DNA of 64,000 nt, taken from the NCBI GenBank assembly GCA_016792585.1, contig JAEULB010000165.1:4337-68336 (forward strand), given 5' to 3'. The notes below the pieces were generated by a model that saw nothing but the letters and a program-made list of their open reading frames with translations, did not search any database and had not been told where the DNA came from. The position numbers and the translations under genes were made by a program. The number at the start of each line of letters is the position of its first letter. Position 1 is the first letter of the stretch. Of this stretch, positions 36,360-49,473 are shown piece by piece. Source of the DNA: Rhodospirillaceae bacterium. GTDB taxonomy: Bacteria > Pseudomonadota > Alphaproteobacteria > SHVZ01.

Positions 36360-36384
36360 GGAACACCGGTCCTCCGCGGGCGTT
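36360..36384 (+). promoter_or_regulatory. Consensus EcfG-type (alphaproteobacterial general stress response) promoter GGAAC-N16-CGTT
   Basis: Read directly: GGAACaccggtcctccgcgggCGTT. It begins 3 nt after the isochorismatase stop. The -10 lies 29 nt upstream of ATG 36413, which has SD AAGGAG at 8-nt spacing. Confidence 0.6.
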
Positions 36385-36412: not shown

Positions 36413-36820
36413 ATGCCGACCAGGCCGAATGCGGGATTCCGCGACGGTAAGACGATCCGGCGGTGGACCACCTACGCCATGCCGCCAAGCGATGACGACA
36501 CAGTCGTCAACAAGGAGCTGTTTCCAAGGCCTCCAGGCCAGGCGACCGAAACGTCGATTGCGCCAGACCCCGTCTTCGCGCCGGTCGACAACAGCCGTCC
36601 CGATCTTCCGGACGAGAACGCTGACGGCCTCGATCCGTTGACCGAAGAGGTCATCCGTCAGGCCGAGGACATCACGACCGGCTCGGACGAGCGCCCGCCT
36701 GGCCTTGACGACACGACGGTCGAGCCGCGCGAAGCGATCGAGAACCAGGGTGAGTTCCCAGGTCTTGCCGATCAGGGCGACGAGTCGCCCAACCCTCGCA
36801 AGCGGAGGAGGAAGTCATGA
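36413..36820 (+). CDS. Hypothetical acidic, Pro/Asp/Glu-rich (probably disordered) protein with a C-terminal KRRRK tail
   Basis: ORF 36386..36820. ATG 36386 sits inside the promoter, so ATG 36413 is preferred. High GC3. No family recognised. Confidence 0.6.
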   Translation: MPTRPNAGFRDGKTIRRWTTYAMPPSDDDTVVNKELFPRPPGQATETSIAPDPVFAPVDNSRPDLPDENADGLDPLTEEVIRQAEDITTGSDERPPGLDDTTVEPREAIENQGEFPGLADQGDESPNPRKRRRKS

Positions 36821-37017
36821 GCAGCAAGATGCCGCCGGTCCCGCCGACGAACCGCAATCCGAAGGATCCGGAGAACGACCCTCAAGTGACGCCGGAGCAG
36901 ATCAAGAACCGGCAGATGGAGCAGTCCAAGTCCGGCGGCGCGCAGGAGAACATCCACCAGAACACCCGGAACCAGGGCAACCCCACGAGCCGCGGCGGCA
37001 ATCCGCACGCGCGTTAG
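36817..37017 (+). CDS. Small hydrophilic protein (66 aa), N/Q/P/K-rich
   Basis: ATGA overlap with the upstream gene. SD GGAGGAGG. High GC3. Sequence ...PPVPPTNRNPKDP...ENIHQNTRNQGNP... resembles small stress-type proteins I recall from Rhizobiales (unverified). Confidence 0.6.
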   Translation: MSSKMPPVPPTNRNPKDPENDPQVTPEQIKNRQMEQSKSGGAQENIHQNTRNQGNPTSRGGNPHAR

Positions 37018-37765: not shown

Positions 37766-38269
37766 TCAGCGCGATGCGAGCTGCTGGACGCTCGAATAGT
37801 GCTCGCGGAGCGTTGGCAGCGCCCGCCCGGCGAGGAACTTCAGGCTGCGATTGTCGCCTCCCCGCGCATAGGCGGTAAAGAGGGGGATCGCGTCGCCATG
37901 CATGCGGCTCATCTCGGTCATGAACAGGAGGTCAATCTCGTTGGACGAGGCATTGGCCAGGCGGTCCAGGCGGGACTGGAGATCGGCGTCGAGCCTGTCC
38001 GGCAGACTGAGCTTCGCCGCCGCCGCCGCCTCGAAGATGTAGGCCTTGCCGGTCTCGTAGTCGTCGATGAGCTGCTCGGCGAACTTGCGGACCCGTCGGT
38101 CGGTCGAGCGCTTCAGCAGATGGTCGCTGGCGGCGATCGCGAACTGGCTGGCGGCTGCGGCGCGCTCGGCGAATTCCTGCGAGGTCGGGACCGCCTGAGC
38201 CCGTACCGTCTGGAGTGCGCCGGGGGCGAGAGCGATCAAAATCACGAGCAAGAATTGAACCCGCTTCAC
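37766..38269 (-). CDS. DUF4142-like periplasmic protein
   Basis: ORF 37766..38359. GTG 38269 gives the signal peptide VKRVQFLLVILIALAPGALQTVRAQA. Two helical repeats (VRKFAEQLIDDYETG; FMTEMSRMHGDAIPLF) resemble the DUF4142 pattern. Confidence 0.6.
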   Translation of the reverse strand: MKRVQFLLVILIALAPGALQTVRAQAVPTSQEFAERAAAASQFAIAASDHLLKRSTDRRVRKFAEQLIDDYETGKAYIFEAAAAAKLSLPDRLDADLQSRLDRLANASSNEIDLLFMTEMSRMHGDAIPLFTAYARGGDNRSLKFLAGRALPTLREHYSSVQQLASR

Positions 38270-38367
38270 GACCCGGCTCCCTGTCGACGGTGGCGGCAAG
38301 TGGCCGCTTAACCATCGGGGCCCCGAGGCGTTGCGGGAGGGGCGAGTACAAAATGGCAATCGAGGTG

Positions 38368-44843: not shown

Positions 44844-46424
44844 TTGCGTGTTGATGCCGCTGACGTAGCAGCGACCGACGGGCAGCTGCGCCAGGTTCTC
44901 GACGGCGTCGACGCCGGCGTCTGCATCGTCGATGCCGAGGGTCGGATCGTCCTCTACAACAAACGGCTGCCGGAGATCCTGGGCCTGCCCGAGTCCCTAC
45001 TCGCGGGGAATCCGAGCCAGGACGAGGTCATCCGCTTCCAGGCGAGCCGGGGCGACCTGGATGCGCTCGGCATCGATACCGAGGCGCAGATGGCGCGCGT
45101 TTCGGCCGAGGTCCAGAATGCAACCTCGCCGTTCCGCTACGAGCGGACCAACCGCGACGGTCGCATCATCGAGGTCCTGATCCATCCGCTGGCGGACGGG
45201 CGTCAGGTCCGGACCTTCACCGACGTCACCGCGGTCAGGGCTGCCGAGCGCAGGCTCGCGACCAGCGAGGCGCTGCTGGCGGAAATCCTGTCCGGCGTGG
45301 AGGCGGAAGTCTCGGTCTTCGATGCGGACGAGACCTTCCTGCTCGGGAACCGGCGGTTCCGCGAGCGAAACCCGCACCTGCCGCCCGATGGCGAGCTGGT
45401 CGGGAAGAAGTATGCGGACCTGGTCCGTCTTTCTCTCGCGGCCGGCATGGCAGCCGATCCGCAGGCAAAGAAGGATCCGGAAACCTATGTCGCGCGTCGC
45501 ACGGTGGAGTGGCGCGAGGCCAAGGGCGCCCGAAACGAGTACCACGCGGCGTCAGGGCGCTGGCAACAGGTCCGCACGCATCGATCGCCAACCGGGTTAA
45601 CCGTCCAGTTCGTCTTCGACGTCAGCGACCAGAAGCGGGCGGAGGAGAAGCTTGCCGCCAAGTCCGCCTTGCTCGAGCTGGCGCTCGAGAACATGGGCGA
45701 CGGCCTCGCTCTCTACGACAAGGACATCAACATCATCTTCCACAATCGCCAGATGCGAGAGTTCTTCGGCTTTCCCGAGGAGCTCCTGAGGGGCAAGGCG
45801 ACGGCGGAAAGGATGGCGCGCTTCCTTGCGATCCGCGGCCGGTACGGCGGCGGCGACCCGGGGGTCCAGGTCGAGCGCGTGCTCGCGGGGTTCCGCAAGC
45901 GCGACCGGCACATGTACGAGCACATGCTGCCGGACGGACGTACAATTGAGGTCCACCACAATCCGCTGCGCGACGGCACGTTGATCCGCCGCTACGTTGA
46001 CGTGACCGAGCAAAAGCGCATGCAGGCCGAGATCGACGCGAAGACGGCGTTGCTGCAGACCACGCTGGATCACATGGGCGACGGCATCGCGGTGTTCGAC
46101 CGCGACCTCAACGTCGTCCTTCACAATCGCGCGCTGAGGGAGATCTTCGATATCCCCGGCGCCGTGATGCAGGGCAAGGCGATCCCGGCCGAGCGGATCC
46201 TGCATGCGATGGCGGCGAGGGGCCAGTACGGTGCAGGCAGCCCCGAGGAGCACGCGAAACGCATGGTCGAGGAATTGAAGAGCCGGACGCCGGCGACTTA
46301 CGAGGTCGCGACCGCGGGCGGCTGGGCCGTCTCGGTGCATCACATACCGCTGGCCGATGGCGGACTCGTCCGCCGATACGTGGATGTGACGGCCAGAAAG
46401 GGCGAGGTGTCGAGGAAAGATTGA
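44844..46424 (+). CDS. Stand-alone sensor-like protein made of four tandem PAS-type repeats; no output domain
   Basis: 526 aa, TTG start. Four modules of about 125 aa each begin ..LL...L..(V/M).(A/D)G(V/L/I)..(V/Y/F)D.. and end (R)(R/T)(Y/F).DV(T/S). Translation stops 12 aa after the fourth module. Confidence 0.8.
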   Translation: MRVDAADVAATDGQLRQVLDGVDAGVCIVDAEGRIVLYNKRLPEILGLPESLLAGNPSQDEVIRFQASRGDLDALGIDTEAQMARVSAEVQNATSPFRYERTNRDGRIIEVLIHPLADGRQVRTFTDVTAVRAAERRLATSEALLAEILSGVEAEVSVFDADETFLLGNRRFRERNPHLPPDGELVGKKYADLVRLSLAAGMAADPQAKKDPETYVARRTVEWREAKGARNEYHAASGRWQQVRTHRSPTGLTVQFVFDVSDQKRAEEKLAAKSALLELALENMGDGLALYDKDINIIFHNRQMREFFGFPEELLRGKATAERMARFLAIRGRYGGGDPGVQVERVLAGFRKRDRHMYEHMLPDGRTIEVHHNPLRDGTLIRRYVDVTEQKRMQAEIDAKTALLQTTLDHMGDGIAVFDRDLNVVLHNRALREIFDIPGAVMQGKAIPAERILHAMAARGQYGAGSPEEHAKRMVEELKSRTPATYEVATAGGWAVSVHHIPLADGGLVRRYVDVTARKGEVSRKD

Positions 46425-46431
46425 CGCGGCT

Positions 46432-46466
46432 CGGCTCCGGCCGCCTTTCGGGGCAAGCCGGAGCCG
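46432..46466. terminator. Hairpin between convergent genes; possible bidirectional terminator
   Basis: CGGCTCCGGC ... GCCGGAGCCG: 10-bp stem, 15-nt loop. No clear T-tract. Confidence 0.45.
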
Positions 46467-46476
46467 GCGACCTGCG

Positions 46477-46839
46477 TCAGCCCCAGTAGGGCGGGACCTT
46501 GTAGTAGGTGAACGACTTGCCGCGGATGTCGCCGTCCGAGCGGATGAGGTCGTCAAGATCGTAGGCCGGCGCCTTCTGCAGGACGTCCTTCGACATCGGC
46601 ACGACGTACCCGCCTTTGTCCTCGCTGTAGTCGAGCAGTGACCACGGCACCGGATGATACTTCTCGCCCATGCCGAGGAAGCCGCCGAAGCCGAGCACGG
46701 CGTACATGATGTTGTTCGACGTCTTGTCGAGCACGACGTCCTCGACGTGGCCGATCTTCTCGCCGGCGGTGTTGTAGACCGAGGTCCCGGAGACCTTCGA
46801 GCTCAGGATCGCCTTGGTGTGGCCGGTGGCAGTAGGCAT
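46477..46839 (-). CDS. PRC-barrel domain protein
   Basis: 120 aa. SSKVSGTSVYNTAGEKIGHVEDVVLDKTSNNIMYAVLGFGGFLGMGEKYHPVPWSLL is the typical PRC-barrel pattern. SD GAGGAG. Confidence 0.85.
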   Translation of the reverse strand: MPTATGHTKAILSSKVSGTSVYNTAGEKIGHVEDVVLDKTSNNIMYAVLGFGGFLGMGEKYHPVPWSLLDYSEDKGGYVVPMSKDVLQKAPAYDLDDLIRSDGDIRGKSFTYYKVPPYWG

Positions 46840-46904
46840 GGGAATATCTCCTCAAGAAATGCGCATGGGCGGCACGATCTTCGCGGATCGTGCCGGGTGC
46901 ATCT

Positions 46905-46932
46905 GGAACGTCTGGACCGACGGCGCCGTTCC
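46905..46932. promoter_or_regulatory. Palindromic dual EcfG-type promoter GGAACG-N16-CGTTCC, reading GGAAC-N17-CGTT on both strands
   Basis: Read directly: GGAACGTCTGGACCGACGGCGCCGTTCC, in the 126-bp spacer between the PRC-barrel (minus) and YjbQ-family (plus) genes. Confidence 0.6.
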
Positions 46933-46965
46933 CGCTTCGGGCTGCGACATCGTAGTCTCAAGCGC

Positions 46966-47385
46966 ATGAAGCAGGCTCAGCACGCGATCGCGGTATCGAC
47001 ATCCGGCAAGGGGCTGGTCGAGATCACCGCCGAGATCGCCGGATGGCTGGCGAAGCAGCGAATCGCGACCGGCCTCCTGACCATCTTCTGCCGCCACACC
47101 TCGGCCTCGCTGCTGATCCAGGAAAACGCCGACCGTGACGTGCGGATGGATCTGGAGACCTATTTCGATCGGATCGCGCCGGAGGAGCCCGAGCGCTATG
47201 TCCACGACGCCGAGGGTCCCGACGACATGCCCTCGCACATCCGGACGGCGCTGACCCAGGTGCAGCTGACCATTCCGGTTTCAGGAGGGCGGATGGCGCT
47301 CGGCATCTGGCAAGGCGTCTATCTGTTCGAGCATCGCCGCGCCGCGCACCGGCGCGAGGTCGTGCTCCACCTGATCGGTGAGTGA
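46966..47385 (+). CDS. YjbQ/UPF0047 family protein (secondary thiamine-phosphate synthase-like)
   Basis: ORF 46654..47385; ATG 46966 gives 139 aa. LLTIFCRHTSASLLIQENADRDVRMDLE...DMPSHIRTALT...GIWQGVYLFEHR matches the UPF0047 pattern. Confidence 0.85.
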   Translation: MKQAQHAIAVSTSGKGLVEITAEIAGWLAKQRIATGLLTIFCRHTSASLLIQENADRDVRMDLETYFDRIAPEEPERYVHDAEGPDDMPSHIRTALTQVQLTIPVSGGRMALGIWQGVYLFEHRRAAHRREVVLHLIGE

Positions 47386-47388
47386 GAC

Positions 47389-49473
47389 CTAGAGATCGAT
47401 GACGATGTTGCCAGCCGCATCCAGGCTGGCGCGGGCCCCGGGCGGCACCACGCAGGTCGCGTCGTATTCCTCGACGATCAGGGGCCCCGCCTTGCCGGCA
47501 GCGAGGTCAGAGCGCCGCAGGACCGGCGTCTCGACCCAGCCGGACTCCGGGCCGAAATAGGCCGGCCGCGGCGGCGGCGGCTCCGGCTCGGCCCGGGTCG
47601 AGCGCACGCGCTCGGGCACGCCGGCGCCGTCGCGAAGCCCAAAGCCGATCACCTGCATCGCCACCAGCTCGACTGGCTCCTCCGGCCCGGCGCGATGGCC
47701 ATAGGTCTTCTCGTGCTCGCGCCCGAAGCCTTCCTCGAGATGGGCCACCATCGCCTGGTCGATCGGACCGTCCGGCATCGGCACGACCAGCTCATAGCTC
47801 TGGCCGTGGTAGTGGAGTGACGCTGAACGGCGGAGCCGCGCACGAGATCCGGTGAAACCTTCGCTGGCGAGCTGGTCGAGGGCTTGGCGGGCAAGCTCGG
47901 TCCAGGCATCCTCGATCTCGCCGAGGTCGGCCTTCCGCAGCAGCCGGCGGAAGGTCCGGGCATAGTGGTGCTCGACATCGGCGTAGAGGAGCCCGAAGGA
48001 CGAGAAGAGGCCGGCCGAGGGCGGGACCACGACGCGGGACATGCCGAGCGACTTCGCCATGCCGGCGGCGAACAGCGGGCCGTTGCCGCCGAAGGCGAAG
48101 AGCGCGAACTCGCGCGGGTCGCGGCCGCGCTCTGTCGAGACCGCCTTGATCGCGCGGATCATGTTGGAAGCAGCGATCTGGTGCGCACCGTAGGCAGCCT
48201 GCTCGATCGACATCTTCATCGGCGTCGCCACCGTCGCGGTGAAGACCTGCTTTGCCTTGGATGCGTTCAGCTTGACCGCGCCGCCGACCAGATGCCGCGG
48301 GTTGATGTAGCCGAGGATGACATTGGCGTCGGTGACGGTCGGCATCGCGCCGCCCTTGTCGTAGCAGACCGGGCCAGGCGTGGCCCCGGCGCTCTCAGGT
48401 CCGATCTGCAGCGATCCGCCGGCATCGATCCAGACATGCGAGCCGCCGCCGGCCCCGACCTCGGCCAGATCGATGGCCGGGACCTTGAGGGTATAGCCGG
48501 CGCCGGTCAAAAGGCGCGAGCCGATCATGATGCCGGCGCCGACCGAGTACTCGGTCGCGCGCGTGACCTCGCCGTCCTCGACCATCGAGGCCTTGGCGGT
48601 GGTGCCCCCCATGTCAAAGGTCAGGATCTTCTTGAGACCTTTCGCACGCGCCAGCGCCTGCGCCCCCACGACACCGCCGGCGGGGCCGGACTCGATGATG
48701 TTCATCGGCCGCTCGGCCGCCGCCTGGTCGGTGGTGAGCCCGCCATTCGACTGCATCAGCAAAAGGCGCGCCGGGATGCCGGCGGCATCGAGGCCCTTGC
48801 GAAGCGCCCGCAGGTAGCTGGAGACGATCGGCATGACATAGGCGTTCACGACTACGGTCGAGGTGCGTTCGTACTCCTTCACTTCAGGCAGCACCTCATA
48901 GGAGACGGAGAGGGGAAGCGACGGCGCCTTCCGCCGCACGATCTCGGCGATCGCGAGCTCATGCGCCGGGTTGGTGAAGGAGTTGAGCAGGCAGACGGCG
49001 ATCGCCTCGACCTTCTCGGCCAGCAGAGCCGCGACCGCACGTTCGGCGTCGGCCGGATCGAGGGCCCGCTCGACCCTGCCGTAGGCGTCGACCCGCTCGT
49101 CGACGACCTGACGGAGATAGCGCTCGACCAGCGGCGGCGGCTTGGTCCAGGTGAGGTCGTAGAGCCTGGGCATCCGGAGCGTCCGGATCTCCAGCACGTC
49201 GCGGAAGCCCTTGGTGGTGATGAGGCCGGTGCGGGCCCCCTTGTGCTCGAGGATCGCGTTGGAGGCGACCGTGGTGCCGTGGCGGATCTCCTCCAGCACC
49301 TTGCCGTCGAGGCCGGTCTCGCGGAACAGCTGGGACAATCCTTCGACGATCGCCGCAGCATAGTTGCCGACGCTGGAGGAGATCTTGGCCGTGTGGATCG
49401 TGCCGTCCTGGCCTAAGAGCACGATGTCGGTGAAGGTGCCGCCGATGTCGACGCCGACGCGGTAGGTGGTCAC
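47389..49473 (-). CDS. hyuA: Hydantoinase/oxoprolinase family subunit A, second copy
   Basis: 694 aa. MTTYRVGVDIGGTFTD. GTGA overlap with the upstream hyuB. Confidence 0.9.
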   Translation of the reverse strand: MTTYRVGVDIGGTFTDIVLLGQDGTIHTAKISSSVGNYAAAIVEGLSQLFRETGLDGKVLEEIRHGTTVASNAILEHKGARTGLITTKGFRDVLEIRTLRMPRLYDLTWTKPPPLVERYLRQVVDERVDAYGRVERALDPADAERAVAALLAEKVEAIAVCLLNSFTNPAHELAIAEIVRRKAPSLPLSVSYEVLPEVKEYERTSTVVVNAYVMPIVSSYLRALRKGLDAAGIPARLLLMQSNGGLTTDQAAAERPMNIIESGPAGGVVGAQALARAKGLKKILTFDMGGTTAKASMVEDGEVTRATEYSVGAGIMIGSRLLTGAGYTLKVPAIDLAEVGAGGGSHVWIDAGGSLQIGPESAGATPGPVCYDKGGAMPTVTDANVILGYINPRHLVGGAVKLNASKAKQVFTATVATPMKMSIEQAAYGAHQIAASNMIRAIKAVSTERGRDPREFALFAFGGNGPLFAAGMAKSLGMSRVVVPPSAGLFSSFGLLYADVEHHYARTFRRLLRKADLGEIEDAWTELARQALDQLASEGFTGSRARLRRSASLHYHGQSYELVVPMPDGPIDQAMVAHLEEGFGREHEKTYGHRAGPEEPVELVAMQVIGFGLRDGAGVPERVRSTRAEPEPPPPRPAYFGPESGWVETPVLRRSDLAAGKAGPLIVEEYDATCVVPPGARASLDAAGNIVIDL

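Follow-up and report, generated by a model that had tools for sequence, protein, structure and literature searches.

The 28-bp intergenic element GGAACGTCTGGACCGACGGCGCCGTTCC occupies positions 46905-46932 of the 64-kb stretch of DNA analysed here (the window) and can be read as GGAAC-N17-CGTT on both of its strands. The explanation that we favour, and regard as probably correct, is that the element is a conserved EcfG-type promoter of the PRC-barrel gene, that the mirrored copy facing yjbQ is a lineage-specific by-product of the symmetry of the consensus, and that yjbQ has a promoter of its own. According to this explanation an EcfG-type (ECF15) general-stress sigma factor would transcribe the PRC-barrel gene from a -35 box at 46932-46928 and a -10 box at 46910-46907 on the minus strand, and transcription would start near 46898, with a stable hairpin at the head of the resulting leader of about 60 nt. 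Consensus symmetry would have given six of the nine bases of the mirror, with G46905, G46906 and C46927 completing a perfect mirror in the lineage of the window; two unconstrained bases would have turned it into a perfect consensus in the window's sub-clade. The yjbQ gene would be expressed mainly from a sigma-70-like promoter with the -10 hexamer TAGTCT (46953-46958), probably as a leaderless mRNA.

The element sits in the 126-bp spacer between two divergent genes. On the minus strand is a PRC-barrel domain gene (46477-46839, 120 aa; Pfam PF05239, E 1.3e-16) with a GAGGAG Shine-Dalgarno sequence at 46848-46853, and on the plus strand a yjbQ/UPF0047 gene (46966-47385, 139 aa; PF01894, E 1.6e-39), the ATG of which, at 46966, has no Shine-Dalgarno sequence upstream. 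An exact-protein look-up with the PRC protein gave no record. A motif scan of the window returned strict EcfG-type matches, each of the form GGAAC-N17-CGTT, at 46905-46930 (plus strand) and 46907-46932 (minus strand), which bore out the claim of an earlier note on this DNA that the motif is present in both directions. The gene starts given there (46839 for the PRC gene and 46966 for yjbQ), the length of the spacer, the GAGGAG sequence and the distances from predicted transcription start to ATG were all correct, and the element agrees, as had been proposed, with the EcfG/RpoE2/SigT consensus. Two descriptions had to be amended. What had been called a 28-bp palindrome is an inverted repeat in its outer 6+6 bp, GGAACG-N16-CGTTCC, and the inner 16 bp contain no palindrome; and the promoters, described as face-to-face, are in reality divergent, lying back-to-back and overlapping fully. 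The -35 box of either copy overlaps the -10 box of the other, and about 40 bp lie between the two predicted starts. From these starts the 5' UTR would be about 60 nt for the PRC gene and about 27 nt for yjbQ. Convergent with the PRC gene is an open reading frame (44844-46424, plus strand) for a 526-aa protein that is composed solely of PAS domains (four PAS_7/PAS_4 units) and has no output domain; this PAS-only neighbour recurs in loci L172-L179, and a response-regulator gene takes its place in L161 and L183.

Sequences for comparison came from 80 loci obtained by a PRC-protein scan, with one genome per species, together with extra contigs found through close YjbQ relatives. The PRC-yjbQ set comprised 19 distinct orthologous spacers, and in 17 of these the PRC gene was intact. 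The PRC-directed -35 box, GGAAC (46928-46932, minus strand), was invariant in all 19, as was its extended form GGGAACG. The corresponding -10 box, CGTT (46907-46910, minus strand; predicted start near 46897-46900), was kept in 16 of the 17 intact spacers, the sole departure from the core being TGTT in L187 (yjbQ at 401-820), a variant reported to work as an EcfG -10 (PMC7083833). The 16 or 17 nucleotides that separate the boxes diverged freely among the orthologous spacers and also changed in length. This pattern of conservation points to strong purifying selection on the PRC-directed copy.

The same arrangement was seen in PRC genes at greater distance. Among loci that were labelled as alphaproteobacterial or were unassigned, 46 of 57 distant PRC homologues (81%) carried the motif on the gene strand with at most one mismatch, and where it was present CGTT was mostly 29-44 nt from the start codon; at loci with gamma or beta labels the motif was found, at the same threshold, for 4 of 16 homologues. 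No perfect match was found on the opposite strand for any of 73 distant PRC homologues. The statement in the earlier note that PRC-barrel genes are recurrent members of the EcfG regulon is upheld both by these counts and by the literature: in Sphingomonas melonis Fr1 the PRC-barrel gene #1478 ranks near the top of the EcfG-dependent genes (PMC6599016), and in Sinorhizobium meliloti expression of the PRC-barrel gene SMb20522 depends on RpoE2 (PMC6180224). Outside the core boxes independent PRC promoters had no informative positions, and a weight matrix for ranking the two strands was therefore dropped. In its motif and spacing, in the conservation of its boxes over a diverging spacer and in the family of its target gene, the PRC-directed copy agrees with promoters of the EcfG type (ECF15). 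It looks like an EcfG-type promoter, for which we infer both the sigma-factor dependence and the start position, and this half of the element is an ordinary, very well conserved instance of a well-known regulon. A Pfam scan of 14 open reading frames in the window found no ECF sigma factor and no PhyR.

Near the predicted 5' end of the PRC mRNA is a 10-bp stem-loop (46870-46895, minus strand; MFE -22.8 kcal/mol, z -2.76) that is kept in relatives, where a consensus fold showed four pairs retained through two-sided changes. In the window's clade CGTT is 67 nt from the ATG, compared with 29-44 nt for most PRC homologues, and the stem-loop lengthens the leader by about 25-35 nt relative to the distant PRC homologues. 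One possible effect is greater stability of the mRNA at its 5' end. A search of Rfam gave nothing at the gathering threshold over the whole window, and in the region 46700-47100 it gave chance-level matches alone at E<=5.

The 12-base pattern GGAACG-N16-CGTTCC occurred once in the window and in none of 100 shuffles. For the mirrored copy the relevant chance is conditional on the presence of one true promoter, and on that basis a mirror is expected in about 1 in 30 EcfG-type promoters. Part of the EcfG consensus is its own complement: reverse-complementing the AAC of the -35 box gives the GTT of the -10 box, and the spacing is equal when read on the other strand, so any GGAAC-N17-CGTT promoter already supplies six of the nine bases of a mirrored copy. 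A perfect mirror requires three further bases, G following GGAAC and CC following CGTT, which at the base composition found here should occur together about 3.3% of the time. Among 51 independent motifs, taken as the distinct strict matches at loci unrelated to that of the window, the mirrored copy had 0, 1, 2 or 3 mismatches in 0, 10, 21 and 20 cases, respectively, in agreement with chance expectations of 3.3, 20.9, 44.4 and 31.4%.

That mirrors occur at chance frequency among these motifs counts against the alternative in which the element is a selected bidirectional EcfG promoter in the window's sub-clade, with the PRC gene and yjbQ both under stress control and the two orientations in competition. 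We consider this unlikely, although it draws on a consensus that is perfect on both strands and at a suitable distance from each start codon. The mirrored -35 box, GGAAC, is at 46905-46909 and the mirrored -10 box, CGTT, at 46927-46930, both on the plus strand, with a predicted start near 46937-46940. AAC of the former is common to the PRC -10 and GTT of the latter to the PRC -35; specific to the mirror are only G46905 and G46906 in the one box and C46927 in the other. Among the 17 distinct intact spacers the mirrored -35 was GGAAC in five, GAAAC in seven, CAAAC in four, L003 among them, and AAAAC in one, and the GG was thus missing from 12. Its carriers were the window, L001, L182, L184 and L006. 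The presence of GG in four of the five closest distinct spacers and in the distant L006 keeps selection alive as a reading, but L161, which has 95% YjbQ identity and belongs to the closest group (at least 94%), has GA, so that the GG varies even among the closest relatives. C46927, which could be cited in favour of selection, was conserved in all 19 spacers; by itself this says little, because the base belongs as well to the extended PRC -35, GGGAACG, which is itself invariant.

The picture was similar on the side of the target gene. For 74 more distant yjbQ homologues from metagenomes, no strict motif was found on the yjbQ strand within 150 nt upstream, and the eight with a one-mismatch motif represent the background level. 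None of the papers searched connected UPF0047/YjbQ to the general stress response. Furthermore, yjbQ persists in a lineage from which the mirrored -35 has been lost. In this freshwater lineage, which has 92% YjbQ identity and is represented by at least 13 contigs (P0009/P0011; L162-L171 and L186), the PRC gene has become a pseudogene (at 414-647 in L163, for example). It has lost codons 1-42, its leader and the PRC -10, and with the latter the mirrored -35, and the PRC remnant has two in-frame stops. The yjbQ gene and about 60 nt upstream of it are still intact. The mirrored copy has the motif and spacing of an EcfG-type promoter, with six of nine bases set by the PRC promoter, and departs from that type in its conservation among orthologues and in its target family. 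Of the dual promoter proposed in the earlier note, the PRC-directed half stands, its boxes being kept across the orthologous PRC/yjbQ spacers, whereas the yjbQ-directed half is not supported as a designed promoter.

A start from the mirrored copy would also leave yjbQ with a 27-nt leader that has no Shine-Dalgarno sequence, yet a conserved -10-like hexamer is found 7 nt before the ATG. Comparison of the spacers revealed a conserved block, GCTGCGACATCGTAGTCT (46941-46958, plus strand), that adjoins the ATG of yjbQ and includes TAGTCT (46953-46958), a sigma-70-like -10 hexamer of the form TAnnnT. In 18 of the 19 distinct spacers TAGnCT or TAATCT preceded the ATG by 6-8 nt, with variable bases between the hexamer and the ATG and no Shine-Dalgarno sequence, and the PRC-pseudogene lineage retained the hexamer in the changed form TAATCT. 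For other yjbQ homologues, 7 of 21 occurrences of TAnnnT in the 60 nt upstream fell 6-9 nt before the start, which is an enrichment, and 17 of 65 had a Shine-Dalgarno-like sequence. Taken together, the conserved -10-like hexamer near the ATG and the absence of a Shine-Dalgarno sequence suggest that yjbQ has a leaderless mRNA transcribed from this candidate sigma-70-type -10. The putative -35 that would accompany it is weak (TTCCCG) and overlaps the PRC -35 on the opposite strand. A generic scan for sigma-70 promoters and terminators over 46300-47500 called no site, so that the proposal of a yjbQ -10 rests on conservation. Since GCTGCGACATCGTAGTCT is longer than a -10 requires, it is possible that it holds an additional regulator-binding site; further copies of the block GCTGCGACATCGTAG in the window, with up to three mismatches, were found in a chance-level count that gave no sign of a regulon motif.

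Even if the mirror arose as a by-product, it may allow some EcfG-dependent initiation under stress, as its core match is as perfect as that of the PRC copy and minimal templates suffice for EcfG-RNAP in vitro; with Sphingopyxis EcfG-RNAP, templates extending from the -35 to the transcription start were enough for transcription (PMC7083833). GAAAC-type -35 boxes are known in real RpoE2 promoters, and relatives with GA may thus keep a weak mirrored activity. Mutual exclusion of two RNA polymerases on the 28-bp site is physically plausible, and such competition has been documented at symmetric sigma-70 promoters, but in Escherichia coli it was confined to cases of strong activation in one direction (PMC12825309). 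We think it rather doubtful that the site is a working ECF bidirectional promoter in the sub-clade that co-induces yjbQ and the PRC gene while the two orientations of the same holoenzyme compete. The sequences lend poor support to the mirrored copy as a conserved two-way switch or regulatory device, and it is most likely a by-product.

Two further readings do without a pair of sigma-factor promoters. The inverted repeat GGAACG-N16-CGTTCC could be the operator of a dimeric transcription factor for the divergent gene pair rather than a pair of sigma-factor promoters, as might be suggested by the perfect inverted repeat that its 6-bp arms form in the window. This we rejected as very improbable, since the left arm is unconserved, with its GG varying in 12 of 17 spacers, and the distance between the arms is either 16 or 15 bp among relatives; in addition, the same half-motifs are found upstream of PRC homologues that lack any mirrored arm, and the inner 16 bp are asymmetric. 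That both matches are accidents and neither gene is EcfG-dependent is scarcely credible: short degenerate motifs do arise randomly, with 0.66 strict matches expected per 64 kb, but the conservation of the PRC-directed boxes (-35 in 19 of 19 spacers and -10 CGTT in 16 of 17 intact ones, in spite of the diverging sequence between them) excludes pure chance for the PRC half, and the fixed distance of the motif from the start codon in 81% of alphaproteobacterial PRC homologues and the experimentally shown place of PRC-barrel genes in the regulon (PMC6599016, PMC6180224) argue in the same direction.

Against the expected 0.66, the window contained three strict matches to the EcfG motif. The third, GGAAC-N16-CGTT at 36360-36384 on the plus strand, is directly after an isochorismatase gene and is followed by two open reading frames, 36413-36820 (about 135 aa) and 36817-37017 (66 aa), whose products are small, highly charged and hydrophilic and gave no Pfam match. 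These resemble typical general-stress proteins, and the locus is probably another EcfG-type target; its presence fits an EcfG-type regulon that is active in this organism. The nearby DUF4142 gene (37766-38359, minus strand) had no strict match to the EcfG motif in its upstream region. EcfG-like sites were also noticed outside the alphaproteobacterial loci. Three Steroidobacteraceae-labelled MAGs (L041, L048 and L060) have a near-identical GGAACCAATCGCG...GAGTT 35-42 nt upstream of the PRC homologue; in these bins, which are labelled as Gammaproteobacteria, it forms an EcfG-like -35/-10 pair that has a single mismatch. EcfG is regarded as confined to Alphaproteobacteria, and the GGAACCAATCGCG sites would represent either a related ECF promoter or mislabelled bins.

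The symmetry of the consensus has a practical consequence. In a GC-rich genome roughly 1 in 30 EcfG promoters would also look like a perfect promoter from the opposite strand, and because the consensus is self-complementary motif scans will wrongly count divergent neighbours among the genes of the general-stress regulon in a few per cent of cases. Should the mirrored copy prove active, symmetry-driven divergent transcription would extend from sigma-70 to ECF sigma factors, and the element would provide a small, easily mutated test bed in which G46905 and G46906 separate the two directions. If the bidirectional reading were true, the element would be the ECF analogue of the symmetric sigma-70 promoters, with the -35 of each direction serving as the -10 of the other.

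A search of the literature for a bidirectional or mirrored ECF or EcfG promoter found no description of one, and the only relevant case was occlusion by HrpL. In Pseudomonas syringae, HrpL-RNAP bound at the hrpJ promoter occludes the divergent hrpL promoter (PMC5263251). As in that system, an ECF holoenzyme at one promoter of the shared intergenic region would interfere with divergent transcription here; the hrpJ/hrpL region differs in that two sigma factors (HrpL and sigma-54) are used and the elements are adjacent, not superimposed mirrors. Sigma-70 bidirectional promoters have overlapping -10 hexamers, a typical distance of 18 bp between the starts (range 7-25 bp) and a separate -35 for each direction (Warman et al., bioRxiv 10.1101/2020.01.31.928960), and competition between the directions is negligible at basal activity, being seen only with one direction strongly activated (PMC12825309). 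The 28-bp element resembles them in that a pseudo-symmetric consensus places divergent signals on opposite strands (bioRxiv 10.1101/2020.01.31.928960; PMC12825309), in that binding of one RNA polymerase would exclude the other, and in that such sites can arise without selection. It does not have the sigma-70-type geometry of overlapping -10 hexamers and starts 7-25 bp apart: here a -35 overlaps a -10, about 40 bp separate the predicted starts, and an ECF sigma factor would be used. The closest likeness of the PRC-directed copy is to the EcfG/RpoE2/SigT (ECF15) promoters of PRC genes, in which GGAAC-N16/17-CGTT likewise stands just upstream of a small PRC-barrel gene (PMC6599016, PMC6180224). 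Unlike those promoters, the one in the window's clade precedes a longer leader with a 5' hairpin, and its dependence on the sigma factor is predicted from the motif and its conservation.
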